A stretch of 62,401 nt of DNA, the filler included, from Sphacelaria rigidula (taxonomy: Eukaryota), in NCBI GenBank assembly GCA_964200075.2. It is 10 parts of 10 records of this genome, joined end to end, with 100 filler letters (N's around TTAATTAATTAA, not from the genome) between each part and the next. Parts side by side here need not be neighbours in the genome. Positions count along the whole stretch, not along the records: positions 31,255 to 37,404 come from CAXNAA020021923.1; 9 more parts are not named here. One strand, 5' to 3'. The notes under the pieces were generated by a model that saw nothing but the letters and a program-made list of their open reading frames with translations, was not told the origin of the DNA and ran no database searches. This document shows, piece after piece, positions 6,152-56,294 of the stretch (its first letter is position 1; each line of letters begins with the position of its first letter). The position numbers and the translations under genes were made by a program.

Positions 6152-6251
6152 NNNNNNNNNNNNNNNNNNNNNNNNNNNNNNNNNNNNNNNNNNNNTTAAT
6201 TAATTAANNNNNNNNNNNNNNNNNNNNNNNNNNNNNNNNNNNNNNNNNNNN
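6152..6251. other. Artificial contig-joining spacer (44 N + TTAATTAATTAA all-frame stop + 44 N)
   Basis: Identical spacers at 12403-12502, 18654-18753, 24905-25004, 31155-31254, 37405-37504, 43655-43754, 49904-50003 and 56153-56252. Contig lengths fall from 6151 to 6149, so they are size-sorted. Confidence 0.99.
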
Positions 6252-11372: not shown

Positions 11373-12502
11373 CTCGAAAGCTCAGTGCAAAATTTATAGC
11401 ATGCTTGCTTTCTGCCGGTTGTGTGCTCAGTTACACTCACCACATCACGAGCTGTAGACATTACCTGTCGTGCAGACCGTGCGGTAGGGCACACTCTGTG
11501 CAGCACAGCAGGCAGGTGGGTCGCTGATGGATAATCTGCTCATTTCCAGAACAAATCAGTTTCTCTCTGGTATGCCTGCAACCGGCGACCACACTTGACC
11601 CCATCACCGCAGCCAGCGCTGCCGACATACACACCGTCAAAGAAGATTGTATCGGGTGTGCTCGGGGGTTGTGAATACAGTAGCTTACTCAACCGTTCGG
11701 TGCGGTGCTGATAATATCTTGTTTGCAGTGGATGCGCTAGTGATGCACCTGTACAAACAAACAACAAAACCATTTTTCAACCGCCCTGCGGCTCATACGC
11801 TTGGGCCATCATTTAAGCTGCACCGCGGCACCTTCGTACCATACTGCCCTTCTCTGCGCGCGCTGATTGGCTATGCACATCAATGTACTTCATGATTTTT
11901 TTAATGGCGAGGCGTTTGGCCCTGTCTAAGGCCCTGTCTTATCGAGAAAGAAAAACAAAAGAGAAACGCAACATGCGTCCAATAGCAGCGCGTTGATTGA
12001 TCGCCGGGCGGGTCTATGGTTGCGGCGACCAATTATTATGCTGCTCTTCAACGCTCGCTTTTCAACGCACGCGTCATTCTACGCTTCTGTTTTCTGTCTC
12101 GATAAGTCACGATCTGACACAAGTCACGACCTGACACAAGTCACGACACCAAAAATAAGAGAGCCATAATCGAGAGTTTCGGAAACACAAATCAGAACTC
12201 AGGGATAAAAGCGAGAACGACTGGATTGTTTATGCTTAAACCCAGGTTTGTCTTTATTTATTTTCACCACGTCGGTGTGGACCGTGGCCAACTTTTCAGG
12301 GTCTAGTTTTTTCTGTTCCGAATGCCACGTGGTCGGTGTCATGAGTTGAAAAGGTACAAGTCGCGCCGTGGTTTTCTGCGCTTGTACTGTGTGCCTACCC
12401 ATNNNNNNNNNNNNNNNNNNNNNNNNNNNNNNNNNNNNNNNNNNNNTTAATTAATTAANNNNNNNNNNNNNNNNNNNNNNNNNNNNNNNNNNNNNNNNNN
12501 NN

Positions 12503-18270: not shown

Positions 18271-20129
18271 CGACGACAATAAAAAGATAACCTTGCCGAT
18301 CGAAGGCCATTGCGGACGATAATATTGGCATCTGCTGCAGCAGAATTCTATTGCTATTGCAATACAGGCTGGGCCGCCTAAGAAGGGGACTTTCTTTCAG
18401 CCGGTTCTAATTGACGTTCTATCGCGAGTCGTGCCTACTATGACACATCATGGTAACCTGCAAATCAACGCGCGTCTTCCACTTTACGTAGCACTGCGAT
18501 GTGACGAGTTCCCATCAAACGAAATGCCAAACTGTAGTCAGATGCGAAGTGTAGAGAGTTGAGGGTGGCATGTGCGGCGGAATTAGGGGGGGAAAGCGGC
18601 TGACATCGCATTTACGGTTACAGTCGGTTTTGCCGCGGCCGCAAAGTGATGGTNNNNNNNNNNNNNNNNNNNNNNNNNNNNNNNNNNNNNNNNNNNNTTA
18701 ATTAATTAANNNNNNNNNNNNNNNNNNNNNNNNNNNNNNNNNNNNNNNNNNNNCCAGTGATTGGTCGCTGCGATACCACCCCCCTCCCCCCCCACAAAAA
18801 AAAAAAGTCCCCTCAATGTGCACAGAAATCCCCTCTAGAGAGAGGATTTCAGGAAGTTCAAAACCACTTCCTGAAATCTCCCTTTCAAAGGGGGATTTTC
18901 GGACACCTTGAAGGGGAACATACGTGTCCGGTTGACAGGGGCACATGCAAAGGCTCACCACACAGCCTAACACAATCAGAGCTGAATCTGAGGAACTTGG
19001 TGGCCCCGCAAACCGAAAATACACAGCTCAAGCCCTAGCTACTCATCAGCTGTGCACGTTGTTCGTGACCTTGCTCAAATCTGTTCAGAATTCATTTAGA
19101 AATGATGATTTGTGTGAGACGCGCGCGCAGAACACGCTTACAAAACGGTCAGCAACGACACGTTTTCGGTTGTTTTTGACGCGCAAGCGGCCGCCACTCG
19201 TCCAAGACAGAACGGATTTTCGTCAAACAAAGACTGTCGTGTGTAGGTTAACAAGACCTACCAGTGAAACTAATGCGCGTGATTGGTGAGTGTTTGTGCG
19301 TGTTTTTTCGGGGCTGGGTGTGTAGGTGTTGTGTTACCTTGTTGTGCATTGTCCGCAGCATTACACAGACCTTGGACCTGCTTGGTTTAACGACCACTTC
19401 TAGACCCGCCGCGTTTCTCAACCTGTGTGCAGATCTGGGTTCCAATTTGTACAAAACTGCTTGTCGATAGGGCTCGAGACTGGTCGTTATGGGGCCAATC
19501 CCCTGTCAAAAGGGGATTGTGAAAAAGGGGATAATCCCCTTCGTTAAGAAGGGCCCTAACAAGTACAGGAGTTTCCACTAGCTTGCGATACGTTGAAAGT
19601 GAGCGTTGGATTATGACAGTTATCCAGGATGGAAAGTAGGATTAGTTCCTCCGCCCCGTCCCCGTCCCCGTTTTTGTATTCATGAACATGATAAAACGTG
19701 GCGACTTTTGAGCGAAAAACTAGATGAAATGTGGGAGTCTGGCTGTGCACCTGCACTTGGCAACGCTTACGTATACTTGCTGGCGAACAGCGCTTTTTCT
19801 TGGATAGGCGGCAGCGAAAACGTGCGAAATGTTCAATTAGATCTCGGGTCATTATCTGCTCCGAGTCTGGGTGGACAAGCTGTCCGGACCGCTTCGGCAC
19901 CGATGAAGCACTCGTCGCTATCGGCATGTGCGATCACACGAAACCGTAGCAGCCATCCCCAGAATAATGTAGAAGTTGAAGGCAGTTAGCAGTATGGCAG
20001 ATCAGCCGAAACATTCAACACTGTCGGTTGCTGCCAATACACTTTCTGTGTGTCCCCAATCCCTAAGCGGCCATATTGTCCACCTCGTGGCGTACGTGTT
20101 ATTTTCCACTGTGGCTTGCGACATGACAG

Positions 20130-23826: not shown

Positions 23827-25454
23827 GTAAAAGAGAGAGAGGGGGGTCGAACAGCGACAGCTGATTTTGTTTTGTTCTCAAGTCGTACGATGTATGACTT
23901 GATTCGTGTTCACGTGGGTCTTTACTGGTTTGGTTTCCGCGTGTCTTTTGTCTTTGGGCTGTGTCGAAAGCGGCCTCGGTGAGAGCTTTGATATTCAACT
24001 TCTTTTTTGCCCCTTTTTGTTTTTTCTCCCCGCATGAATTTGGACACGCATGGTTTGTAATCGTATTGAACGTTATCTCCACCCCCTCCCCGTGAGCGCG
24101 ATACCTCTTCTGGGACCAGTTTTTTTCACCTATTGGCTTTCATCGCCGGCAACGGTGACGCTACAGCTGAGCATTTTTTCCTTGTTTGAATGGACACCAC
24201 TACCCTCCTCCACCAATGGAAACATGCCAAAGTCGCTCAGGGTAGGGCACGTACCCTGAAGTGCCCTGGGTTCTTTTTCAGAACATTTTGAGCACCTAAG
24301 ACTCCAGGGCACGTGAGATATCAACTACCGAAGCTAGAGAGAACCCCGTAACACCAGGAGCATCGACAAAGAAATATTCAGTATGCCGTGGTACTCGCGG
24401 GAATATTGTACCCTGCGGTACCGTGTACACCTGTGGGTGATGATCCCTGGGACTGACGATAAGTTAGCGACAAATCATCTAGATAGTTCTACTGTCTTGC
24501 CTCCCGCCCCCTCCCCTTGCTCCAGGGTTGTCGGTCTCCCTTGTGTTTTTCGTATAGTTTGTCGTTTCATCGACCTTCGGTACGGACATTCCATTTTGGC
24601 CTCGTGCTGGTTGGTGCCTGGAGTTCCTATTACACCCTGGTTTCGGTGTTCTAAATCACAATGTTACGAGGTCCCAGGGATCATAACCCACCATTGGTCG
24701 GTTCGGCTAGGGCACAAGGCCGCGGGTTCGAATCCCGACATATACAATTTTCAGATGCATCGACTTTTTTTAGCATAACGTGGTGTTAACATGCATATGT
24801 GCACATGTACAAGCGTCAAGCTCCAAAGCTTGTTTTCGTTTTATTCAAGCACGCTTCCACCCCCAGCGCGCCCCACCTCCTCCCCCCAACCCACACTCTC
24901 ATTANNNNNNNNNNNNNNNNNNNNNNNNNNNNNNNNNNNNNNNNNNNNTTAATTAATTAANNNNNNNNNNNNNNNNNNNNNNNNNNNNNNNNNNNNNNNN
25001 NNNNCAACACAGGGTCAGCCCTGTGTTAGTGGGGGTCCGGTCCCAAAAGAGTTGAGCAGACCTAGGCAACGGGGTTTACGGTATAAGAACTCAGAATCAC
25101 AAGAGTCACCGCATGAATCCTGGTTGACAACGGACCGGTACGCTGTACCGACCCGTTCACTCGTTCTTCTAGCCTACCCTTGACCACGGTCGCATCCTTG
25201 CCCAAATGACAAGAAGGAGAATTACGCCTCGCTCTGGAGATCCCTCGGCAGCAGGGTACGACAACGTTCTTCTTCGGGACCCGTAAGTCTACTACCTCAC
25301 TCCTAGCGAAGCTTAGTTCATATGTCTCATTTTTTGGTTCATTATGCCCTAGCGAGGTCCCACACAAAATTCCACAACACAAGTACCTAACCTGGGCCTC
25401 TACGTGGCCAGCAAAATATTGTTGCGAATTTCGACCGGCGCGGTTTCTAAATCC

Positions 25455-29613: not shown

Positions 29614-31148
29614 CAAGGGTAGGTCGAGTAGAGTATACTCAATACTCTGTAATTTTGAGGAGTCATACTTTTAGCACTCGAAGCTTGAGTAGAGTATTTG
29701 AGGTCGTACTCAACCTACTAAAATATTCGAGTAGAGTATTTGAGATCATACTCAGTCTACTCAAATTTGAGTAGAGTATTGAGGTCATACTCAAGTGATA
29801 CTCTATAATCGAGTTTTCCTGACAGTGCGTAATCAATGTTTGGGTAAAGTATTGGAACCCGTACTCAACGTACTCGAAATTGTAGTAGAGTATTTGAGAC
29901 CATACTCAACCTACTCAAATTTTGAGTAGAGTATTGAGGTCATACTTAAGCGATACTCTATACTCAAAAATTACTGAGAGTGCTTACTCAATATTTGAGT
30001 AGAGTATTTGAGGTCGTACTCGACCTACTCAAAAGTTGAGCAGAGTATTGGAGGCCATACTCGACCCACTCAAAATTTGAGTAGAGTATTTGAGGCCGTA
30101 CTCGGTCTACTCAAAATTTGAGTAGAGTATTTGAGGCCGCACTCGACCAACTCGAAATTTGAGTGGGAGTATCTGAGGCCGGATCCGACGTGCCGAAAAC
30201 CTATAACTTCAACTTCAATATTCAAGTTCGTACGCAAGATATTTGAACTCGGGTGGAGGAAATACCGAGGTATTCCCAGAGTTGCCCACCCATGATGGGT
30301 GTTGATTCAAGGTCAAACTGTCTTGTCAAACCGTAGCCAGTGGAGTCGCTCATTCTGATAATACCTACTCGACTACTCGTCTACTCGATTACTCGATGCT
30401 GATCGAGTAGCGCTCTGTACTGAAAGTGATATCGAAAGCGTTGCGAGGTATCGAGTATAAACTGCCGTGGGTGGGGGCTGGTGAGGGGGCGCTGGGGCAA
30501 GTAGGTTCGTTCACCTGCACGCTTCTTGATTTTTTTATGGCCATCATTCGCTCATACTCCTTGTTGGCTGTGATGTAACGCCGCCCATCTAATTGATGGC
30601 CATCGGTCGCCCATGCATCCAACATAGTCTGTGAACTGACGTCACGTAGTCACCGACTGTCAGGGGTACTCACCATACCCAAGGGGTACTCTATACCCAA
30701 GTATTACTGAGAGTACTTACTCAATATTTGAGTAAAGTATTTAAGGTTGTACTCAACCTACTCAAAATTTGAGTAGAGTATTTGAGACTGTACTCAACGT
30801 ACTCGAAATTTGAGTAAAGTATTTGAGGCCGTACTCAACCTACTCAAAATTCAAGTAGAGTATTGAGGTCATACTCAAGTGATACTCTATACTCGAGTAT
30901 TACCGAGAGTACTTACTCAAAAATTGAGAAGAGTATTTGAGGTCATACTCAACCTACTCAAAATTTGAGTAGAGTATTGAGGTCATACTCAAGTGATACT
31001 CTTTGCTCAAGTTTTACTGAGAGTGCTTACTCAAGATTTGAGTAGAGTATTGAGGTCGTACTCGACCTACTCAAACGTGGAGTAGAGTAAATACTTGAGT
31101 ATTTTACTCGAGTACTCAAAAGTACGTACTCTACTCGACCTACCCTTG
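29614..31148. mobile_element. Non-autonomous hAT-like DNA transposon with arrays of ~41-bp palindromic subterminal repeats
   Basis: Perfect 22-bp TIRs CAAGGGTAGGTCGAGTAGAGTA / TACTCTACTCGACCTACCCTTG. The left flank is GACAGTTT (29606-29613) and the right flank is GACAGT, cut by the contig end, consistent with an 8-bp TSD. Confidence 0.85.
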
Positions 31149-31254
31149 GACAGTNNNNNNNNNNNNNNNNNNNNNNNNNNNNNNNNNNNNNNNNNNNNTT
31201 AATTAATTAANNNNNNNNNNNNNNNNNNNNNNNNNNNNNNNNNNNNNNNNNNNN

Positions 31255-33145
31255 CTGATCACGGCCACCGCAGGAATCACCTCCGCCGGCGACATCACCA
31301 CCACCAGCTCCGGAAACCTACTGGTAGACGGAACCACCACGTCTACTGGCCTGCTCACAGCCTCGAACAACCTGCAGGTCGATGGAACCACCACGTCGAC
31401 TGGTCTGCTCACAGCCTCCGACAACCTGCAGGTCGCTGGGACGACCACGTCTACTGGCTTGATCACGGCCACCGCAGGAATCACCTCCGCCGGCGACATC
31501 ACCATCACCAGCTCCGGCAACCTACTGGTAGACGGAACCACCACCTCTACTGGCCTGCTCACCGCCTCAGACAACCTGCAGGTCGATGGAACCACAACCT
31601 CTACTGGTCTGCTCACCGCCTCAAACAACCTGCAGGTCGATGGGACCACCACGTCGACTGGTCTGCTCACCGCCTCCGACAACCTGCAGGTCGATGGGAC
31701 CACCACGTCGACTGGCCTGATCACGGCCACCGCAGGAATCACCTCCGCCGGCGACATCACCACCACCAGCTCCGGCAACCTACTGGTAGATGGCACCATC
31801 ACGTCGACTGGCCTGCTTACCGCCTCAGGCAACCTGCAGGTCGATGGAACCACAACGTCGACTGGCCTGATCACGGCCACCGCAGGAATTACCTCCGCCG
31901 GCGACATCACCACCACCAGCTCCGGCAACCTACTGGTAGATGGCACCACCACATCCACCGGCCTTCTTACCGCCAATGCCGCATTTTATATCACCGGTGA
32001 CAGCGACATAGTGGGTAATCTAGATGTGACGGGGTCAGTCACCGCTAGTTCTCACGTTAGGAGATCTGACCGGCGGCTGAAAGAAAACATTGCGCAACTT
32101 TCAAGCCCTCTCGAAAGTCTTCACAAAATCCGCGGGGTAAGTCGTTCGACTTGTATTGTACAGGCAGTCCATTGCGAGCGCACAGGATGCGGCAACGCGT
32201 TGCATGCCTTGATTTGAGTGTCCGACCTTGGTAATCTTCATTTTCAGGTCTTCCCCAGTTTAGCGGAGAAGTCTGCACTGCTTGTAGCGGAGGTCTTCCC
32301 CGGGTGGCCGCCGTCATAAAACAATGTTTTAGTTATCTTAAAGTCAAAAGCTATAGGGTGAACCTACAATTAAGTCGTCAAACCTTCGATGTGAAGGTTC
32401 AGATTGAAGGCCCAACTTGAATCTTTCAGCTCGAAGCGGCTCGACTTTAAGCTTCCTCTGGTGCATGCGTTCGATTCCAAGATTTGAGTGAAAAGCTGGA
32501 TTGCAAACCTTTCACGACTGTTCATTGAAGGTTGAAGTTGATACCTTTCCATTACACCTGAAGGTTTGATATTGATGGAAGGGGGAGCTTGAACCTTAAA
32601 TTTGAACGAGAAGTCTACCTTGATGTGGAAGTCGAAGAAACAAGTGAAAGCTTCATTAACTTCAAGTTGAACGTTCAACTTGAATGCACGACGATGAGGT
32701 CAGCTTTGAGCCTGCGTCCTATGTTGAACCTTCAGCTCAACTGGAACCTTCAAGTTGAAGCTTCTGTTTCAACTCTACAGTAGAGTTGGAGCTTTATCTC
32801 CAGCTTGAACGTTCAACATCTGACACGAACTTTTCACGGCTACACCCAACCTTCAACCAACTGAACCTTCATGATAGTTAATGCCGAACTTTGAAAACAG
32901 CTTGCTTCATAGCGAGTACAGATCTGAACAGACTAGATGATGCTTCACCCCATTTTTTCTGCAGCTTCTGCGAGTGGCAATGGGTCATCTCGACTAACCC
33001 CTGAGAATTCTTACACCTGGCACCCTCAGGTAAGCTTCGAGTGGCAGCAGGATGTACGGGAGGTTAACGAGAAGCTATTCCGAGGAAGAAACATCGGGTT
33101 CATTGCCCAGGAAATTGAAGAGGTCTTTCCGGAGGTCGTGCACAG
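31255..33145 (+). CDS. Tail-fibre/tailspike-like repeat protein with C-terminal Peptidase S74 intramolecular chaperone domain (spliced; partial at both ends)
   Basis: Exon <31255-32136 holds NL(L/Q)VDGTTTSTGLLTAS(D/N/G) and ...GLITATAGITSAGDITTTSSG repeats, then GNLDVTGSVTASSHVRR-SDRRLKENIAQLSSPLESLHKIRG. A GT-AG intron follows at 32137-33029. Exon 33030-33145 reads VSFEWQQDVREVNEKLFRGRNIGFIAQEIEEVFPEVVH. SDxRLKxNI and GFIAQE are the S74 hallmarks. Confidence 0.9.
32355..32870. repeat. Degenerate TTCAAGTTGAA-type short palindromic repeat region inside the S74 intron (probable TE remnant)
   Basis: Many variants of aac(c/t)ttcaagttgaa and ttgaacgttcaa. A similar motif occurs near 30205-30250. 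Confidence 0.45.
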
Positions 33146-34797
33146 GTGGGAACACACGTCCTACTATTGGGTACAAAAGGGGCCTGCGGATGTCACGTTT
33201 TGGTATTTCTTGTTTGCTGCGTTCTTATCCATTTCTTCTTTCTCTCAAACGGAAACTCGTAACTTGTCTCTGAATTCGTTGTCGGCCATAGGTGCACCTG
33301 GGAGCATTATCAGTCGAGATTAGACCCAACGCTTCTCACAATCTCCTTAATATTCCCTTGAATCTGAGCCCAGGTTTTACGCCCTATTTCTGAGTTTAAC
33401 GTAAGACGGACTATTTTCCACAATTACCCCCCCCCCCGTAGTTTTAGTTTGACGCTCCGCCTTGCTCGGAAAGACGTCCGCAGTCTCGAAAGATGACTCA
33501 TCTCTCTCCTGGTATTTTAATCCTTTGACCGCGACAGTAGGTCACCTGCTGAATCGGCATCAACATTCACGAGAAAAAAGCATGCGTGGTCCGGATGGAC
33601 TACCCGCATCGCGGTCACGGATTGAAAATACACTAGTAAGATTCAGCTTCCAGAATTCACGGGTGACCTGCAAGTACTACCTGAGGTTGCTTGCAGCGAC
33701 CTTTCACTCATCGTCTCCTCATGTCGCTGGTTTTATACTTGTATGTCTGTGCATAACTTCAGTCCGGGGTACAGGTTGGTAGTATCGCGTGATGAGAAGA
33801 ATTTCCCGGAATGGTTGGAATGAGAAATGTTATCGTAACATATTTTCCGTACCCTATATATATATGGGCGGATGCATACAGCATATCGATTGTTTATCTA
33901 GCACTGTGTTACCGAACGTTCGGTCTGGACTTTCTCAGTTCGTTTACTCTTTTTATCGATTTTTTGGACAGTCATGTCTTTGTATACCTCCAGATGGTAA
34001 CTGTATGGTACTAGTTTTCATTTCTTCAAACATTCCTTCAGATCCACGTCCGAAACATTCCTTCAAATCGACATCCGCACGCCACGAACGACAGGAAAGG
34101 GAAAAGTTATGTTGTCGGGAGTTCATCCCGCGACGTACTCCACCCCCCAACTAGTGCTGAGGGGCCAGTTTCACCGCCGGGGCTCGCACTCTGAACTATG
34201 AAAAGTGCAACACTGAGTGCGGCTGGCCGTCATCACTGGAAAATAAGCTTTGAGCGTGACTGAGACTGATACCGCGATAGCCCCCCCTCCGGGAAAGTGG
34301 CTGGTTTGAGGGGGGCAAAATCTACTTGTAAACGACGATGACAAAAGCTGAGCACGCCGAGCAGTTGGAACTCCCACGCTTGGGATCGTTTTTGCTATTT
34401 TTGTGTTTTCGTCGCCAGAGGACAGGAAGGTACCTTTCACCATGCACTTCGCTACTTCTAGTTTCGTGCAGCGCTTCCCCATCCGTCAGGCATGTCCAAC
34501 CCAGAGGGCAGACATGTCCAGCGAATGTATGGGTAGGCACCAAGGTGGGAGTGCCCCCCCCACCCAGGTAGTCTCGGACTTGGGACGAGGATATCCCTCA
34601 CCGAGCAAACCTCCTACAATGTCCCCCAGCTCGACTCTGTACACGAATCACCCTGCCCATCCGGGCGTCGGTCCTCAATCGTTTTTGCTAATATCGCCCG
34701 TATGAGGCGCTTCATGCAGTCTGAAACCAGCTATCATGCGGTGTATGTCTTTTTTTTTTCGCGCCAGTTCTGCGGCCGGTTGGGGGGGGAAGGTCGT

Positions 34798-35830
34798 ACT
34801 CATTTGTTGATTGCCTTAGTTGTTTAACCATTGACCACGCATCCCTTTCGAGGCGGAGCACCGTTCCTACTCCGTATGGAGACACCTCCAACATTCGGGC
34901 GTTCGTTACGTTTCTTCCAAACATTACACAAAAACCTTTTACATATCTTATCCCCGTCCTGTTTCGTCGTCTGTGGTCACCATCTATCTCCTAGTATAGC
35001 CATCGTTTTCTCGCTACTGTCTGATACATTCAACGATCTCATGCCACCGCCGTTTATTTCCCGCATTTCCTCATCTAGAACGTCCCGTTCTTGTAGCTAG
35101 TATTATTGTTATTGTTATTTCCGCACATTAGTCCGGTTTCCCGAACCTGTAGTCACATGTGTAGGCTCGTCTTTCCAATACCGTCCCTGCTATTCCTTTC
35201 AAGACATAAAGTCCTCCATCATTTTATTTATAGACTCCAGACTGATTACAAGAACAAACTGTGTAGTTCCACATTATGCCACTACATGAGTACTACTCTC
35301 TACTGCTATACCACAGGGGCAATTCTGTGCATCTACTTCCTCTTCCTCTCGACTACTGGTATACCTCTTCTTTCTGGCGGGTCCACGCCCCCCACCCAAA
35401 ATCGTAGTTTTAGTTTCATTCGCGGAGTCCGTTGGGCCGTGTAGATATACCTTTATTCCTATCCCCTCTATCAACCCCCGTATATCCAGGCGCTCTTCCT
35501 CGTCTACTTTCCGCCTTAGCGCTTCTTTATCCCTTATTTCCATCGTTTCTCTCATGTTCGTCTTGTACCCTCCGTATTCACCTACGGACACTATCTCGCC
35601 TTGGTGTCCTGTTATGCCGTTCCATAATTTCTCGACTACGCTATCTCATCCTATTCCAGCCCGCCGTTTCACCACTTTCTTCCATACAGCCCCACCAGCT
35701 ATGGTTGGCAATCTCTTTCCGTGCATTTTCCTCACGCTATCTCGTCATTTCAATTTTCTCGTGTCTCTATTTGTTTATACGGATACATTCCAACTCTGCT
35801 CTTAACGATGTATTACTCGTCATGGTATTT
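34798..35830 (-). mobile_element. Decayed 3' end of a non-LTR retrotransposon (LINE ORF2 C-terminus)
   Basis: Interrupted frames read KEALRRKVDEEERL...YLHGPTD...RYTSSREEEEVDAQNCPCGIAVESSTHVV (Cys/His knuckle) and ...ERDVLDEEMRE...SSEKTMAILGDRWWPQ...KRFLCNVWKKRNERPNVGGVSIRSRNGAPPRKGCVVNG. The last ~60 nt recur as solo copies elsewhere in the window. Confidence 0.7.
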
Positions 35831-35851
35831 GGTAAGGGGGAGGGGGAGGGC

Positions 35852-35915
35852 GTACTGATTTGTTGCTTGCCTCAGTCGTTTGACCATTGACCACGTATCC
35901 CTTTCGAGATGGTGC
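35852..35915 (-). mobile_element. Short 5'-truncated copy of the same LINE 3' terminus
   Basis: gtactgatttgttgcttgcctcagtcgtttgaccattgaccacgtatccctttcgagatggtgc. Related copies lie at ~48640-48708 (+), ~60522-60657 (two) and ~62360-62401. Confidence 0.7.
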
Positions 35916-38900
35916 TGGTTTGGGGGGAGGGGGGGGGGCGTTATTGTGGCATCGATCAGGACCAAGGTCCTTTGAGAAGAGTTGAACCGATGATTAAAGC
36001 CTGTCCTAAACGCTGGGTCGTCGACTTTTTTCGTGAACCAGGACATCACGCGTCCCGTCCTCTTCCCACTGACGTCGAAATGCACCGTAAGGACAGGGTC
36101 TCAGAAGATTCAAACAGGATCTCGGGTTTTATGTACCGTATGCCGATAAAGTCATGGGTGAGCCGGGAAAACAGTTTACTTCGCTATAATTGCTCAGATC
36201 GTTGCTAGCAATATCCGTCGAGTTCGGCCATCATTGAATCCGTTTACTTCGTTCAGAGTTCAAGTATTGTGCAGGCCACCAGGTCAAAGAGACTTCGCTC
36301 ACATAGCGGCATCGGTTCCGACCGACACTGCTGCGTGCCACATCATTTACGACGGCTATCTGACAGTTGTCGCTACTGGGCAGACTCTCGTAGGCATCCA
36401 ATCCCTCGTCGATCTTTTATCAGGCAGCAGGGTCCGCCCACCTGTTGTAACGTAATTCTCGCAAAGCGGACACGAATCGGCTTGAACCGTGGCAAGTGTG
36501 TACCCTACAGGCAACGGCGTGGGCTTCTACAATTGTCCTCGGCCAGAGGTGCCCATAGCCAGGAGTTGGACACATGTAGCCCGCCCCTCGGGGGTGGAAA
36601 TCCGGCTTTCGAGCACTCAAGATTTAAACCGTTGAGGATTGCATGAGTCGGTTTCTTGGCTGATGTGTGTGCTTCTCTTGCCTCTTTGCATAGTTACCAT
36701 GCGCCCACTACTTCCAGTGGAAACATTGCTTGTTGCTACCGTGATAGTACTGGTTGTGGATAACAGAACACGGTGTGGAGAGGAATGCAGACAGGTACCG
36801 CAAAAGGTACAGTAACCAGCACCCAAGTGTTTTATTTTCGATCGAAGGCGAGTTCTTCGGGTTTTTCGATCAGCAAGACCGATCACGGATAACGTTTGAT
36901 CCCAAACTCCGAGGATCCATAGATCTTCGCGCCCGAATGAAAATCCGAAAATGTGATCGTTTATACCATTGATTTCGAACGACTTAGTTACGCGGTAACC
37001 GGTCTTCGGGGGTACCACGAGTATGCAACTTGAAGTTCTCGCTATTTGACATTTTGGCTCAACCGAATCGATCTAGATTGTTATGATGAACAGTTGACTT
37101 TCTATGATTCAACTTTCAATTTTCCTAGCTTATATTGTGCTACAGCCGAAAAATCGTGTTCTTGAACTAAATTCGATCGGTAAGATTCCCCCCCCCCTAC
37201 CCCCACCCCGACGCACCCATGGGGCAGTATAAAAGCCATGGCTGTCTCCGGAAGTGGCGACACCAGAAAGTAAAGCTGTCATCCAAATGCAAGATAATCA
37301 GTAGGCTTCGGGCTGAATAATTTAAGCAGGATGCAGCCCACCCTTCATACGACTCACCAAGCACATCACGGCGCTGCGCGCTTGGTGGTTTGAGTGCGAG
37401 CCTGNNNNNNNNNNNNNNNNNNNNNNNNNNNNNNNNNNNNNNNNNNNNTTAATTAATTAANNNNNNNNNNNNNNNNNNNNNNNNNNNNNNNNNNNNNNNN
37501 NNNNCCTTTCTTGGGCAAAAAACGAGAAGGTATACCTTTTGTTGGCCATTGCCCTAATCGTTTCAATGATTGGTCTCTGATTCCTTGTGTCCATCATGGA
37601 AATACTTACGATATTCTGGACACACTGTGTTTTATGGTATATGGATTGATTATTGATTGTGGGTCTTATTTTTTGTATTTTTTATTTTGTATTTTTTATT
37701 TTATTTTTCATGGCCCCATCCGAAGAACTCACGGAACATGAGGACACCCAGTCACTGTATCGGTTCGATTTTTTTTCCCTTTATTTGTGCTTGTGCTTTT
37801 ATTTCTTATTTTTTTGTGTACATCGCCCCTTCCCGTTCTCCGTACCAAAGAGGACTCGATCTTCCAACGGAGTCTCAATTTTCTGTGGTGTGGGAGAGGT
37901 GTGCCTCGATGCAAGTTCGCCCCTTCTGAAAAGCGACTGCACTTGAACGATCCAGGGTGGGCTAATGTGATGGTAAATGACTGTGTCTGAATTAAAAGTA
38001 GTTTGGAATTTCCGGATCCCCAGAAAAGACCGACGGGTATGGAAAGATTCTAGTCGAATGTGTGTTGTGGTAAGGCAGGATTGGATTGTTGACGCAGCTG
38101 GTTGAAGGTAGATAGATTGTACCCGATTAGCCGCGTGTACCTGCTGCTACTATAGCGTTGTTTGGCAAAAGGCACAGCACGTCACGGTAATTTTGTATTA
38201 TGAAAAATTGTAAGCGAGGCAGGAGGTGTTGGGAAAACAGCGAACCATAGCTGCTCCCCACCTCCAGCCACTTGCAACCCACCTGCCAGAGAAACAGCTA
38301 CCGTAGAACTAATCACAAGAAAGACCATCAGCTTTTCATCTGCTCTACGCGACGTCTCATCTCCTGCAGGCAAGCCGTGACGAGCTATAACGAGAGTAAG
38401 CCACGAGTAATATAAGCCTTTTTGTGTGTCAATTGGTGTTTCCTTTTTCCGAAAGAGCTCGGTACTTACTTTCAATAACAACAGCTGTCTGCTGTTGACG
38501 AGTGCCTTGTGTGAGAGAGACCCTACTGTTTGACTTAACGAGCCGAAAACAGGACCAGTGTGTCACACACTCACCCATCTTGGGTTGTGGCTTGCTCTGC
38601 TTTCCGATACTACCACAAATGTGCATATCGCGCGTGTGCTGCTGTTGCACTCGGTAACAACAGCGCTCGGCAACAGCTTGTTAGTAGCACGGGCTCTAGT
38701 TGAGCAGAGGACGTGGCTATGGCAGGCGACACTGGCGACGTGTGGAAGTCGACAGCATGCTGTACACGATCCGTGGTAAGTGGGAGTGTGCGATCGCTGG
38801 GGGCAAACCAAAAACGGTCCGTGAGCGAGAAGCGAGCAATGCTTCTCCCGTTTCGATTTTGTTTCGTCCCGCGACACGAAAAGTGCAGATCGCGCGTGTG

Positions 38901-40747
38901 CTGCTTTTTCACTCGGTAACAACAGCGCTCGGCAACAGCTTGTTGGTAGCACCAACGCTAGCTGAGCAGAGGGAGTGGCTATAGCGAGCAACAACATAGC
39001 GACGAGTGGCAGTCGGCAGCATGCTGGACACGATCCATGGTGTGTTGGTGTGTGCCATCGCCGGGTGCAAAAAGGAAACGATCCCTGGGTGAGGAGCGCG
39101 CGATGCTTTTGCCGTTTCTGTTCTGTTTCGTCGTGCGACACGAAGAGTGCAGATCGCGCGTGTGCTGCTGTTGCACTCAGTAGCAACAGCGCTCGGCAGA
39201 AGCTTGCTGGTAGCACGGGCTCCCGCTGAGCAGAGGGGGTGGCCATAGCGAGCGACACCTGACAACGTGTGGCAGTCGGCAGCATGCTGGACACGATCCA
39301 TGGTGCGTTGGTGCATGCAGTAACTGAGTGCGAAATGGAAACAATCCGTGGGCTAGAAAAAGCGAGCGATGCATTTGCCGTTTTGATACTATTTCGTCGC
39401 GCGACACGAGAAGTGCAGATCGCGCGTGTGCTGCTGCTGCACTCGGTAACAACAGCGCTCGGCAACAGCTTGTTGGTAGCACGGGCTCTCGCTGAGCACA
39501 GAAACAGGCTCTAGCGAGCGACACCTGACGGCGTGTTGCAGTCGGCAGCATGCTGTATTCCACGGTACGTGGGTGTGTGCAATCGCTGGAGGCGAGGAAT
39601 CAACGATCCGTGGGCGAGAAGCGCGCGATGCACTTTTTGTTTTGATTTTGTCCCCTAGCACGACACGAAAAGTGTAGATGACGCGTGTGCTGCTGTTGTA
39701 CTCGGTAACAACAGCGCTCGGCAACAGCTTGTTGGTAGCACGGGCTCTCGCTGTGCAGAGGACGTGGCTATAGCGACTGACACCTGACGACGTGTTGCAG
39801 TCGGCAGCATGCTGTACACAATCCATGGTGCGTTGGTGCGTGCGATCGCCGGGTGCAAAAAGGAAACAGTCCGTGAGCGAGAAGCAAGCAATGCTTCTCT
39901 CGTTTCGATTATGTTTTGTCGCTCGTCACGAAAAATGCAGATCTCGCGTGTGCTGCTGTTGCACTCGGTAACAACAGCGCTCGGCAACAGCTTGTTGGTA
40001 GCTCGGGCGCAAGCTGAGCGAAGGGAGTGGCTATAGCGTGCGACAACGTAGCGATGTGTGGCAGTCGGCAGCATGCTGGACACGATCCATGGCGCGTTGG
40101 TGTGTGCGATCGCCGGGTGAAAAACAAAAAGGATCCCCGGGCGAGAAGCGCGCTATGCTTTTGCCGTTTCTGTTCTGTTCCGTCGCGCGACACGAAAAGT
40201 GCAGATCGCGCTTGTGCTGCTGTTGCACTCGGTAACAACAGCACGCGGCAGAAGCTTGCTGGTAGCACGGGCTCTCGCCGAGCAGAGGGAGTGGCCATAG
40301 CGAGCGACACCTGACGGCGTGTTGGAGTCGGCAGCACGCTGTACACGATCCATGGTGCGTTGGTGTGTGCGATCACTGAGTGCGAAATGGAAACAACCCG
40401 CGGGCTAGAAAAAGCGAGCGATGCATTTGCCGTTTTGATACTGTTTCGTCGTGCGACACGAGAAGTGCAGATCGCGGGTGTGCTGCTGCTGCACTCGGTA
40501 GCAACAGCGCTCGGCAACAGCTTGTTGGTAGCACGGGCTCTCGCTGAGTGGAGGAAGTGGCTTTAGCGAGCAACACCTGACGGCGTGTTGCAGTCGGCAG
40601 CATGCTGTACACGATTCATGGTGCGTTGGTGCGTGCAGTCACTGAGTGCGAAATGGAAACAATCCGTAGGATACAAAAAGCAAGCGATGCATTTGCCGTT
40701 TTGATATTGTTCCGTCGCGCGACACGAAAAGGGCAGGTAGCACGTGT

Positions 40748-41174
40748 AACACGGGATCCCCACAAATTAGGGATGGATCTTTTATTGGGGACGAAAAACC
40801 CGGAAAATTGAAATCTTCGTATCCACACAAAATCGTTGAAATATGGTTCCATTTCTTCAACGACTGAAAGCTATTGATAACTGCTACACACTATAGGAAT
40901 TTGGACTTCGATCACGGGAATATTGGGGTTCTAGGTGAAAAACCAATTTCGGAACCATTTTGGCGTCCGTTCGCACCTCCGAAATTCCCTAGAATTGGTG
41001 TTTCACCTGCGACGCCATTGATTCGGTTATCGATATCCAAATTTCTATGTCGTGAAGCAGTTGTCAAGAGCTATGAGTAGGTGGAGAAATGGAATAACAT
41101 TTTGAAGATTTCGCGTGGATACCAAGGTTTTGATGCTCTGGTTTTCTCATCCCCAACTTGTAAGATCCCGTGTT
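40748..41174. mobile_element. MITE inserted in the satellite, 4-bp TSD GTGT
   Basis: TIRs AACACGGGATC..ACAA.TT.GGGATG / CATCCCCAACTTGTAAGATCCCGTGTT plus longer imperfect inner arms. GTGT occurs at 40744-40747 and 41175-41178, and removing the element restores a satellite unit. Confidence 0.85.
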
Positions 41175-43120
41175 GTGTGCTGCTGTTGCACTCGGCAACA
41201 ACAGCGCTCGGCAACAGCTTGTTGGTAGCACGGGCGCTAGCTGAGCAGAGGGAGTGGTTATAGCGAGCGACAACACAGCGACGTGTGGCAGTCGGCAGCA
41301 CGCTGTCCACGATCTGTGGTAAGTGGGAGTGTGCAATGGTTGGATGCGGAATGGAAACAATCCATGGGCTAGGAAAAGCGGGCGATACTTTTACCGTTTC
41401 GGTTCTGTTCCGTCGCGCGACACGAAAAGGGCGGTTCGCGCGTATGCTACTGTTGCACTCGGTGACAACGGCGCTCGGCAACAGCTTGTTGGAAGCACGG
41501 GCTTCCGCTGAGCAAAGGGAGTGGCTATAGCGAGCGACAACGTAGCGACGTGTGGTAGTCGGCAGCATCTGTACACCATCCATGATGCGTTGATGTGTGC
41601 GATCGCCGGGTGCAAAACACAAACGATCCCTGGGCGAGAAGCGCGCTATGATTTTGCCGTTTCTGTTCTGTTCCGTCGCGCGACACCAAAAGTGAAGATC
41701 GCGCGTGTGCTGCTGTTGCACTCGGTATCAACAGCGCTCGGCAACAGCTTGCTGGTAGCACGGGCTCTCGCCGAACAGAGGACGTGGCTATAGCGACTGA
41801 CACCTGACGATTTGTTGAAGTCGGCAGCATGCTGTACACGATCCATGGTGCGTTGGTGCGTGCGAACGCTGGGTGCGAAATGGAAACAACACGTGGGCTA
41901 GAAAAAGCAAGCGATGCATTTGCCGTTTTGATCTTGTTTCGTCGCGCGACACGAGAAGTGCAGATCGCGCGTGTGCTGCTGTTGCACTCGGTAACAACAG
42001 CGCTCGGCAAGAGCTTGTAGGTAGCACGGGCTCTCGCTGAGCGGAGGACGTGGCTCTAGCCAGCCACAACATAGCGATGTGTTGTAGTCGGGAGCATGCT
42101 GAACACGATCCATGGTGCGTTGGTGTGTGCGACCGCTAGATGCGGGAAGGAAACAATCCGTGGGCGAGAAAAAGCGAGCAAAGCTTTTGCCGTTTCGATT
42201 TTGTTCCGTCGTGCAAAACGAAAAGTGCAAATCGCGCGCGTGTGCTGCTGTTGCACTCGGTAACAACAGCGCTTGGTAACAGCTTGTAGGTAGCACGGGC
42301 TCTCGCTGAGCAGAGGACGTGGCTATAGCAAACCACAACATATCGACGTGTCGCAGTCGGCAGCATGCTGTACACCATCCATTGTGCGTGAGTGTGTGCG
42401 ATCGCTGCGTGCGAACTGGAAACTATCCGTAGGCTGGAAGCAAGCGATGTATTTGCCCTTTCGATTTTGCTTCGTCGCGCGACACGAGAAGTGCAGATCG
42501 CGTGTGTGCTGCTGTTGCACTCGGTAGCAACAGCACTCGGCAGCAGCTTGTTGGTAGCACGGGCTCTCGCTGTGCAGAGGACGTGGCTATACCGACTGAC
42601 ACCTGACGACGTGTTGCAGTCGGCAGCATGCTGTACACAATCCATGGTGCGTTGGTGCGTGCGAACGCTGGGTGCGAAATGGAAACAACACGTGGGCTAG
42701 AAAAAGCAAGCGATGCATTTGCCGTTTTGATCTTGTTTCGTCGCGCGACACGAAGAGTGCAGATCGCGCGTGTGCTGCTGTTGCACTCGGTAACAACAGC
42801 GCTCGGCAAGAGCTTGTAGGTAGCACGGGCTCTCGCTGAGCGGAGGACGTGGCTCTAGCCAGCCACAACATGGCGGCGTGTTGCAGTCGGCAGCATGCTG
42901 GACGCGATCCATTGTGCGTGAGTGTGTGCGATTGCTGCGTGCGAACTGCAAACTATCCGTAGGCTGGAAGCGAGCGATGTATTTTCCCTTTCGATTTTGT
43001 TTCGTCGCGCGACACGAAAAGTGCATATCGCGCGTGTGCTGCTGTTGCACTCGGTAACAACAGCGCTTGGCAACAGCTTGTTGGTAGCACGGGCTCTCGC
43101 TGAGCAGAGGAAGTGGCTCT

Positions 43121-43378: not shown

Positions 43379-43942
43379 CTCTAGCGAGCGATATCATAGC
43401 GACGTGTTGCAGTCGGCAGCATGATATACACTCATAGTTATCATCGATCCATTCCTCCATCATCTTGTGGACGCATCACTGTCGCCCGTCGGGGAGTTAG
43501 CGCCTATCGACGTGCCAGCTTTCGTAATACCTCGGAACGTGCGTTGTGCGCGGAATCTGCAGCAGGTGGCATGGTGCACTTGCGGAAGCACTGGGGGGGG
43601 GGGAGTGTTGGTGTGAACAGCCTTTTCAGTGTAGTCTACAGTACTGACAAACCANNNNNNNNNNNNNNNNNNNNNNNNNNNNNNNNNNNNNNNNNNNNTT
43701 AATTAATTAANNNNNNNNNNNNNNNNNNNNNNNNNNNNNNNNNNNNNNNNNNNNTTTTTTTTCTTCTTTGCGGTGGCGTTCGGCCGCCAGGGCCTCAAAA
43801 GTTTTTGTGTGGCCAAACCTTTGGTTGCCCCCCCCCCCCCCTGCCCTCCTTCTCGTTTTCTTCACCTTGTTCACCTCGTCTCTTGTATATTTGTTTTGTT
43901 CTTGCCCGTATGTGTAATTACGTACATATGTTCTTTCTGAAG

Positions 43943-49368: not shown

Positions 49369-50003
49369 TAGTCCGGAAACAGTGTTTGGGAAATTGAATG
49401 ACGTACATGAGATGCACGTGTCGTTACCCGTCTTCACTCGGGCAAGGCGTGCGTCGGTCGACGCAGGGTCTTGTGCGCATGGCCGTGAGAGGTGAGAATG
49501 TGTATTTTTTTTTCGAGGAACGGGTGCAGCACAATATCCCCAACTGTTGTACGTTACGATTTCAGAGCTATAACGGGGATGGTGTTTGTGGATTTTGTTG
49601 TTCTTGTTCCCAATTCCGTGTATTTAATTCAAAGTAGTACCTTTTCGGGGACGAAGAACACGAATGTATACCTTTTACTATAATACCGCAGTTATGACAA
49701 GCCTGCCCTTCTTCTTACCCCTTGATTTTTGTGTATTTTTGTCTTTCCTGTTGTGTTAAGTTATCGCCATACACGGCCAGCTGATTTTGGGTATAGGGGC
49801 GAGGACCTTCTTGTCTTTCCCCCCGCCTCAAGAATTCCGTCCGCGCAATAATGACGTTTTTTCTTCTTTTTTCACTCCCCCCCCTCCATCGCCGCCGGCA
49901 TATNNNNNNNNNNNNNNNNNNNNNNNNNNNNNNNNNNNNNNNNNNNNTTAATTAATTAANNNNNNNNNNNNNNNNNNNNNNNNNNNNNNNNNNNNNNNNN
50001 NNN

Positions 50004-55618: not shown

Positions 55619-56294
55619 GTGCGTACATGGAGCTTTTTTTTATCCCATTTTCACAGATCTAGGGTGCATCCTTGGATTTTCGCGGTATATCCTGCAGAAA
55701 ACAAGCAAACTAAGTACTGTAAAACCTAATGTTGAACATGCGGCAGCTCCGAGCCTCACGAGAAAAATCTGTTTCGTAAGTATTTGCTACCAATCCTGCC
55801 TCTTGACGAATACAGCAGTCCGCACAACCTTTGCTAAACGGGGGATGCTACGATACGGGGGGGTGTACTCATGATCATGCATATGCATGCCATCGTCATC
55901 AGACCGATACGGGGGGAGGGGGATGATTCCACGAATAGCAGGGGCTGACAGGTGTGTCAATCGATCTAACTACTTGCGGTGTGTTTGTATTAGGGTGAAA
56001 ACGGTGTCAAGGGGTATAAATGAGGGCGTCTTGTTGGTAACAAGCGCGTTTGAACAAAGGTTACCGTTTTGAATAGGGTGGAATTTCGTGGCAGCAATGG
56101 CCCAAACTACCGAAATAAATTGGAAATCTCGAAATTGGACAGTTCTCTAGACNNNNNNNNNNNNNNNNNNNNNNNNNNNNNNNNNNNNNNNNNNNNTTAA
56201 TTAATTAANNNNNNNNNNNNNNNNNNNNNNNNNNNNNNNNNNNNNNNNNNNNTCATCCTCAATCAATAGCACCATCCTCAACATAGATGATTGG

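Follow-up and report, generated by a model that had tools for sequence, protein, structure and literature searches.

The stretch of DNA analysed here, hereafter the window, is a 62.4-kb sequence (62,401 nt, filler included) from Sphacelaria rigidula (assembly GCA_964200075.2), and the piece of it at positions 31255-37404 begins with part of a gene for a protein that carries a Peptidase_S74 domain (PF13884), hereafter S74 or ICA. This sequence is a genuine part of a gene from an old stramenopile family in which the head of a flagellar-hair subunit is joined to a rod and a self-cleaving chaperone of phage type. The reading that I favour, with a probability of roughly 0.55, is that the product is a secreted fibre, trimerised by the ICA and then released from it by self-cleavage, and that this fibre is part of the flagellar hairs or attached to them. 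The parts of this reading differ in strength. There is very little doubt that this is a cellular gene of the family with a functional-looking ICA; trimerisation and self-cleavage by the ICA are likely, by analogy with ICA systems already described; the position of the product on the hairs, or mastigonemes, is a possibility that I place somewhat below even odds.

An S74 domain split by an intron

Frame 1 is open from 31255 across 294 codons. After a long array of repeats, its peptide continues ...HVRRSDRRLKENIAQLSSPLESLHKIRG and ends ...RRSDRRLKENIAQLSSPLESLHKIRG at a splice donor, G/GTAAGT (32136/32137, the slash marking the junction). The acceptor, CAG/G, lies at 33029/33030, with a branch-like GACTAAC motif about 30 nt 5' of it, and the second exon, whose peptide is VSFEWQQDVREVNEKLFRGRNIGFIAQEIEEVFPEVVH, ends at AG/GT (33145/33146). 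The comparison with PF13884 proposed in the initial annotation of this DNA gives a significant match: exon 2 by itself reaches 30.7 bits (E 4e-7, against a gathering score of 22) over profile positions 26-58, and the tail of exon 1 scores 16.2 bits over positions 1-24, so that the two halves abut at the splice and the spliced domain is continuous. A hidden Markov model (HMM) built from 21 homologues scores 24.7 bits with exon 1 and 35.1 bits with exon 2. The S, D, R and K of the SDRRLK motif are invariant in all 21 aligned homologues (21/21), as are several residues further downstream, and the Ser and the Lys five residues later that had been described as intact are present as S271 and K276 of the exon-1 peptide. 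The role of such a Ser-Lys dyad is known from work on endoNF and MYRF.

Contigs from sequencing runs were compared with the window in order to follow the junction; one of these runs, X1, is of DNA type, whereas X6-X8 were only guessed to be RNA. A 275-nt contig of X7 (record 18) joins 31999-32135 directly to 33029-33147 and skips 893 nt. Its junction is the predicted splice, with a one-base ambiguity at a G, and it places the end of exon 2 at 33145, where the GT leaves an uncertainty of two bases; beyond exon 2 it runs for 19 nt into sequence that is absent from the window contig. A 384-nt contig of X6 covers 33029-33147 together with 48 nt before and 217 nt after, both off the window contig. 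The unspliced genomic form is represented by a 1634-nt contig of X1 (record 2), which is colinear with 31923-33556, intron included, with 0 differences. The X6 and X7 contigs support transcription and splicing, short of proof since the RNA nature of these runs is a guess. Transcript-type sequence across 32136/33030, which the initial annotation had singled out as a test, is thus found as the intron-less junction of the X7 contig, from a run guessed to be RNA, and the 893-bp GT-AG intron that had been proposed to split the S74 domain is confirmed by its splice sites, by the continuity of the Pfam match and by this contig. Positions 31255-33145 (Table 1) hold two exons from the interior of a nuclear gene of a brown alga, most likely S. 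rigidula or a very close relative. An alternative reading in which exon 2 continues through to ...HRWEHTSYYW, as far as the HMM alignment extends, was rejected, contigs of two runs leaving the genome at 33145-33147.

The fragment lies at the very start of its piece, and the last exon or exons are outside that contig. A third exon was not found in 33146-37404 or anywhere in the window by tblastn with the C-terminus of a full-length homologue (P0009, see below), by a family C-terminal HMM run on six-frame pieces or by motif scans; likewise, the complete S74/ICA with its C-terminal helical part, which is present in homologues, was found neither in the window contig nor in the whole window. The gene is probably complete elsewhere, outside this contig. 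A missing terminal exon had been put forward earlier as the mark of a pseudogene. It is indeed missing, within the window contig only, and the conclusion drawn from it is disfavoured: because the X6 contig continues for 217 nt beyond exon 2, the gap is most likely due to fragmentation of the assembly rather than to decay of the gene. In each of the four runs, three stretches 3' of exon 2 (34740-35150, 35765-35969 and 37200-37404) reach summed contig depths of about 1e5-1e6 and are connected by many joints. They belong to a repeat or transposon family of very high copy number, which probably caused the assembly break. An Rfam scan of the contig 31255-37404 gave no match, and nothing recognisable was seen in the list of open reading frames of 33146-37404, read by eye.

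It is improbable that the copy in the window has decayed to a gene fragment or pseudogene, or that it results from the collapsed or chimeric assembly of a gene rich in repeats. The truncation at 31255, the lack of a third exon in the 4.26 kb that follow exon 2 and in the window as a whole, the high-copy DNA downstream and the repeat units, which are up to 91% identical at the DNA level and easily collapsed, would fit such an origin, but both exons are open, all invariant ICA residues are present and the splice signals are canonical. Moreover, intron-less contigs from two runs extend past exon 2, by 19 and 217 nt, and the DNA-type run matches 31923-33556 with 0 differences.

Table 1. Positions in the window of the gene features and of the artificial spacers.
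Feature	Position	Strand	Basis or remark
Exon 1, 5'-truncated by contig end	31255..32136	+	294 codons; beta-solenoid repeats (predicted), then first half of S74/ICA
Thr/Gly/Ser-rich repeat array, 18-aa + 32-aa units	31255..31995	+	repeat analysis, AlphaFold2
Predicted nucleophile and cleavage-site Ser, S271 of exon-1 peptide, SDRRLK motif	32065..32067	+	codon position; conservation
Predicted general base Lys, K276, five residues after the Ser	32080..32082	+	codon position; conservation
Intron, 893 bp, GTAAGT...CAG, phase 0	32137..33029	+	splice motifs, Pfam continuity, spliced contig
Exon 2, 38 codons + 2 nt	33030..33145	+	second half of Pfam S74 region (VSFEW...IGFIAQEIEEVFPEVVH)
Start of next intron (GT 33146-33147), then non-coding and very high-copy repeat DNA	33146..37404	+	HMM, motif scans, read depth
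Artificial spacer N44-TTAATTAATTAA-N44	31155..31254		outside gene; marks 5' truncation of S74 gene
Spacers, first five	6152-6251, 12403-12502, 18654-18753, 24905-25004, 31155-31254
Spacers, remaining four	37405-37504, 43655-43754, 49904-50003, 56153-56252

Head, rod and chaperone in the whole protein

The best database match is a partial S. rigidula protein, CAM9178437.1 (P0003, 797 aa; E 5e-83), from a 19.9-kb contig. Its repeat units are letter-for-letter identical to those of the exon-1 peptide, the identity in a MAFFT alignment being 98%, and the 32-aa unit in which P0003 breaks off is the one in which the fragment at 31255 sets in. P0003 is probably the missing N-terminal half of the window gene, split by the assembler in the repeat array. 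A full-length homologue, P0009, is an 'unnamed protein product' of Ascophyllum nodosum of 1218 aa. It consists, in this order, of a signal peptide, a Cys-rich head with three EGF_Teneurin/EGF_2 matches, about 650 aa of G/S/T-rich repeats, S74 and a C-terminal tail. Its Peptidase_S74 match scores 63.5 bits and has the ICA series SSDRRLKESIAPLS...GVSFKW...IGFIAQEV..ALPELVHR...; after the ICA comes ...LNYAGFVPLVVEGVKEL and then a charged, helical, heptad-rich tail, a coiled coil as read from the sequence. Beyond the signal peptide, no hydrophobic 19-mer is found in four of the five homologues tested, and P0009 has one near residue 840, inside the repeats; in P0061, P0055 and P0059, the N-terminal leader is hydrophobic and no subsequent 19-mer exceeds 1.6. 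The signal peptide and the terminal coiled coil that the initial annotation had suggested looking for are thus both seen in full-length homologues such as P0009. The protein reconstructed from these pieces would begin with a signal peptide and an EGF head, rich in Cys and about 350 aa long, and would continue with a conserved linker, a Thr/Gly-rich beta-solenoid rod, the ICA and a coiled coil.

The rod is represented in the window by residues 1-245 of the exon-1 peptide, in which an 18-aa unit, GTTTSTGLLTAS[ND]NLQVD, and a 32-aa unit, GTTTSTGLITATAGITSAGDITTTSSGNLLVD, recur regularly; the stretch of more than 240 aa of regular Thr/Gly-rich repeats reported earlier in front of the S74 domain is therefore there, at about 245 aa. 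The composition is 28% T, 13.5% G, 13% L and 11% S, and Tandem Repeats Finder gives periods of 54, 150, 204 and 258 bp with matches of up to 91%. In the AlphaFold2 model of the exon-1 peptide (11-row alignment; mean predicted local distance difference test score, pLDDT, 74.6; predicted template modelling score 0.66), three short strands are formed per 18 residues throughout the repeats. The rod is thus predicted to be a single-chain beta-solenoid with 18 residues per coil, which differs from the intertwined triple beta-helix of the phage fibres with which it had been compared. A Foldseek search with the repeat model gave no match at E<=0.001; its weak neighbours, none of them significant, are beta-helices of the bacterial adhesin and ice-binding types. 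The rod was also observed to share 29-37% identity, over 55-89% of length, with the metagenome proteins P0004-P0007 and P0010, which are of bacterial type with PF18886 and bactofilin (PF04519) matches; the algal repeats and the bacterial beta-solenoids may have a common ancestry, or may resemble each other in composition only.

The C-terminus of P0009 matches, in sequence, the tip of the T4 long tail fibre (6f45, E 1e-7) and the MyRF ICA (7dc3, E 5e-5). The latter is also the best Foldseek match (E 3.7e-4, TM 0.66 on the target) of the model of P0061, a full-length chrysophyte member of the family, of which only the ICA part gave a meaningful match. These similarities in sequence and fold could suggest a membrane-tethered regulator that is released by ICA cleavage, as MYRF is. 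Such a function is, however, scarcely credible here: no transmembrane segment follows the ICA in the full-length homologues examined (P0009, P0061, P0326 and P0329 among them), Pfam scans of the homologues found no DNA-binding domain, and the signal peptide and disulfide-rich EGF head (29 Cys in residues 1-360) indicate an extracellular protein.

The source of the ICA was approached through its relatives. A phmmer search with a 156-aa ICA fragment of the family retrieved 29,722 representatives at E<=1e-3. The head is present in 0 of the 149 other top ICA representatives, and a Pfam scan of the 44 nearest of these found S74 in 44/44, a T9SS sorting domain in two and FG-GAP in one. The family does not form one clade in an ICA tree of 177 rows, a tree without resolution in which some of the 'other' rows are probably fragments of family members. 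An atlas search returned generic S74 clusters only, mostly viral, and a scan of IMG/VR gave nine pattern matches, 0 of which were confirmed as relatives. No donor can be named.

It is very improbable that the gene is itself viral (an integrated fibre gene of a phaeovirus or giant virus) or a bacterial or phage contaminant. S74 is admittedly an overwhelmingly phage and bacterial domain, as the 29,722 representatives illustrate, its atlas neighbours are mostly viral, and S74 proteins are reported from algal giant viruses and polinton-like viruses. Against this stand the GT-AG intron, of which the spliced form is seen, the stramenopile-wide distribution of the head family, the orthologues on large nuclear contigs (for example oomycete contigs of 1.1 Mb and 3.1 Mb), the absence of a confirmed relative among the IMG/VR pattern matches and a guanine-plus-cytosine (GC) content like that of the rest of the window. 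The intron with its spliced form and the presence of the family on large nuclear oomycete contigs bear out the earlier view of a resident eukaryotic gene and not of phage contamination. Calling the module 'domesticated viral-type' was apt insofar as it is of phage/bacterial type; a viral origin is not demonstrated, given 0 relatives in IMG/VR, nearest neighbours outside the family that include bacterial-type proteins with T9SS sorting domains, and a tree without resolution.

A mastigoneme-type head and the flagellar hairs

Residues 29-350 of P0009 match the OCM5 chain of the Ochromonas tubular mastigoneme (PDB 9ufe) over residues 16-363 of 368, with an E value of 2.9e-40. The other five chains of this structure ('Tubular mastigoneme protein', OCM3, OCM6) are matched at E 8e-39 to 6e-28, and the heads of the Ochromonas proteins P0065 and P0081 and of the Phytophthora protein P0077 likewise match 9ufe chains. 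A search with the head found 818 proteins, of which the 120 listed were used for taxa and S74 content. PF13884 is carried by 28 of the 120, and the listed proteins come from brown algae, Bolidophyceae, chrysophytes, Chrysophaeum, Chrysoparadoxa, oomycetes and labyrinthulids, the named rows being from stramenopiles only. A maximum likelihood tree of 99 of these heads (21 of the 120 were dropped for less than 70% head coverage) splits, with 100% support in the Shimodaira-Hasegawa-like approximate likelihood ratio test (SH-aLRT), into a 49-row clade that contains every S74 row and a 50-row clade of proteins of about 680 aa without S74. Equating the latter with MAS1 is unsupported, since PnMas1-3 have 598, 394 and 227 aa.

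Eight oomycete rows of the 49-row clade are without S74 as listed. A first reading of the tree, that the oomycete clade lacks S74, was nevertheless rejected, since longer models in the same 90%-identity clusters carry the domain. Thus, a Phytophthora infestans protein of 3445 aa, named 'Chaperone of endosialidase', has S74 at 3334-3393, the motif PSDRRLK and a coiled-coil end, and a 2193-aa Aphanomyces euteiches model of the clade also carries S74. Assemblies of P. infestans differ in their model of one and the same gene, whose product has 668, 783 or 3445 aa (P0077, P0327 and P0326, respectively), and the A. euteiches models range from 497 to 2193 aa (P0050, P0329 and others), with S74 reached in the longest models only. 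Because only the longest models reach S74, most public models of the family are truncated. Judged from these sequences, the head-rod-ICA architecture is older than the split between oomycetes and ochrophytes, and the family is an ancient cellular one.

In the mechanism that I propose, the protein would enter the secretory pathway, and its C-terminal coiled coil, together with the ICA, would align three chains in register and template the folding of the rod. The chain would then be cut at the invariant Ser (codon 32065-32067) by this residue itself, which the Lys five residues on would activate. Release of the ICA would leave a stable extracellular fibre with three mastigoneme-type heads at one end. 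Through these heads the fibre would be docked to the flagellar hair, where it would form a terminal or lateral filament or some other associated fibre. Trimerisation, templating and cutting at the Ser are proposed because of the analogy with endosialidase, phage fibres and MYRF, the ICA systems whose mechanism serves as the model. The initial annotation correctly placed an ICA behind a rod, but the functions that it suggested (an adhesin, a cell-wall or mucilage fibre, a viral decoy) overlooked the mastigoneme-type EGF head, which points to flagellar hairs.

According to Bouck (1971), the hairs have a base, a tubular shaft and one to three terminal filaments, and in Ochromonas also lateral filaments. 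PnMas1-3 are reported to combine EGF domains with a signal peptide and to be free of transmembrane segments; MAS1-3 are reported from brown algae, and an Ectocarpus mas1 knock-out is reported to be without hairs. Since the hairs have thin filaments and the known Mas proteins are of the EGF type, a paralogue made of a head and a rod is a natural candidate for a filament. It can be imagined, as a doubtful extension of the proposal, that the clade builds the thin (terminal and/or lateral) filaments of the tripartite hairs as ICA-assembled trimers and that the ICA was gained before the divergence of oomycetes and ochrophytes; a single trimer, its three arms bundled or splayed, would then account for the 'one to three' terminal filaments.

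Several points weigh against a hair-associated, ICA-assembled fibre. The EGF head is not in the window, and the link to P0003, which rests on identical repeats, could be to a paralogue; the window contig lacks exon 3 as well as the remaining, helical part of the ICA; and the AlphaFold2 monomer of P0061 is poor (mean pLDDT 50.9). The S74-bearing paralogues of Ochromonas danica, P0065 and P0081, are none of the six 9ufe chains, which they match at 118-158 bits only, and the S74 clade is therefore not a modelled shaft subunit. The second head clade, of about 680 aa and without S74, matches 9ufe equally well (both clades score about 100-140 bits with every 9ufe chain), so that homology of the head gives membership of a superfamily and not a location in the hair. 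A beta-solenoid rises by 0.48 nm per coil, and at 18 aa per coil a single-chain solenoid of about 700 aa would by this arithmetic be about 19 nm long, which is short for a terminal filament. Finally, in a table of Phytophthora parasitica zoospore proteins (PMC12223298 supplement 1), whose second four columns I take to be the flagellar fraction and whose PPTG proteins were judged by size and annotation, not sequence, the counts of known mastigoneme proteins rise 3-5 fold in the second column set, and PPTG_14518 (812 aa), a possible member of the family and the only EGF protein there with the gene ontology term 'protein autoprocessing', is not enriched, with counts of 6,5,5,5 vs 1,3,9,5. In the same table, two EGF/'tenascin-like' proteins of about 680 aa, PPTG_06730 (2,4,3,4 vs 16,16,9,7) and PPTG_08833 (8,3,4,8 vs 15,9,19,17), are higher in the second set, as PnMas1-3 are (PMC12223298); proteins of this kind may be flagellar too.

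Most of these points would suit a different use of the same gene and the same ICA mechanism, namely a general matrix, cell-surface or adhesive fibre (for zoid or spore adhesion or for wall assembly) that merely shares the ancestry of its head with mastigonemes. Such a fibre is possible, if on the unlikely side. It would account for a head homology at superfamily level, for the lack of an S74 protein among the six modelled mastigoneme chains, for PPTG_14518 not being enriched in the presumed flagellar fraction and for the adhesin-type and ice-binding beta-helices among the weak, non-significant fold neighbours of the rod. It fits less well with a head family that is restricted to stramenopiles among the named rows listed, with a match that spans a whole mastigoneme subunit and not isolated EGF repeats, and with a clade that is conserved from oomycetes to brown algae. 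Walls and adhesives differ between these two groups. I retain a fibre of the flagellar hairs as the preferred reading.

Neighbouring sequence and known systems

The window is not one locus but a chain of unplaced contigs, sorted by size, in pieces of 6149-6151 bp. The pieces are joined by nine identical artificial spacers, about 6.25 kb apart, each made of 44 N, TTAATTAATTAA and another 44 N (Table 1); pieces that neighbour each other are therefore physically unlinked, and readings of context across a spacer are invalid. In particular, the spacer at 31155-31254 makes position 31255 a contig end, and the DNA to its left is unrelated to the S74 gene. At 29685-31089, the end of that preceding contig is filled by a 41-bp unit, TACTCAAAATTTGAGTAGAGTATTTGAGG.CGTACTCAACC, in tandem arrays that also show periods of a higher order (114 and 155 bp); the unit has an internal palindrome and, belonging to another contig, is uninformative on the S74 gene. 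The contig at 37505-43654 is richer in GC (0.536). On its minus strand, at about 38920-41760, a chance-level tblastn match, 'YQQAVAERC', occurs six times about 530 bp apart (38948, 39478, 40015, 40530, 41227 and 41757), and this regular spacing indicates a tandem repeat of about 530 bp in that contig.

Tripartite tubular hairs define the stramenopiles and reverse the thrust of the flagellum, and their shaft proteins are known (Mas/Ocm, 9ufe). No paper was found that assigns a protein to the thin filaments of the hairs, and none that describes a fusion of S74/ICA with mastigoneme proteins; the publication on 9ufe, which was not found, may discuss paralogues. With its shaft-type head, its rod and its self-cleaving chaperone for trimerisation, the conserved paralogue offers a concrete candidate for these filaments, and it would add a third, independent cellular use of the ICA to those in phage fibres and MYRF. 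Protein length in the family ranges from about 800 to 3445 aa, and variation in the length of the rod could tune the hydrodynamics of the hair. If the thin-filament version of the proposal is true, a whole supergroup lineage of eukaryotes owes one of its hallmark structures to a module of the phage-tail-fibre/MYRF type; if the product is not flagellar, the family is still an uncharacterised and ancient one of secreted fibres in algae and oomycete plant pathogens.

Among individual proteins, the closest to the window gene is P0003 of the same species, which has identical 18- and 32-aa units, breaks off in the unit where the fragment starts at 31255, and is unannotated, with no function assigned. 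P0009 of A. nodosum, also unannotated, has in common with the window gene the C-terminal motif series SDRRLKE.I.PLS...GVSF.W...IGFIAQE...P E.VHR, whereas its repeats differ in sequence and number. Relative to both entries, the window adds the exon-intron structure of the gene in genomic DNA.

Among known systems, the mastigoneme proteins (OCM3, OCM5, OCM6 and three more in 9ufe; PnMas1-3; MAS1-3) are related through the head, the N-terminal 350 aa or so of the family corresponding to a whole OCM5-like subunit. PnMas1-3 further resemble it, as they are described, in having a signal peptide, an EGF-like Cys pattern and no transmembrane segment. However, the known mastigoneme components are of 209-748 aa (9ufe) or 227-598 aa (PnMas1-3) and are without a solenoid rod or S74; the S74 clade, which is absent from the solved 9ufe chains, adds to the head a predicted beta-solenoid of 400-3000 aa, an ICA and a coiled coil. 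With the phage ICAs (endoNF, 3gw6; the L-shaped fibre of T5, 4uw8; the tip of T4 gp37, 6f45), the family shares PF13884 with its Ser-x4-Lys dyad at the start of the domain, the C-terminal position behind an elongated beta-rich rod and the helical segment that follows. It differs from phage fibres in its eukaryotic host, its spliceosomal introns, its EGF-headed secreted cargo and its rod, which is predicted to be a single-chain solenoid. MYRF (animals and Dictyostelium; 7dc3) is the precedent for the use of an ICA by a eukaryotic cell and the best structural match to the modelled domain. In contrast to MYRF, the algal family is without a DNA-binding domain or a transmembrane anchor, and its product would act outside the cell.

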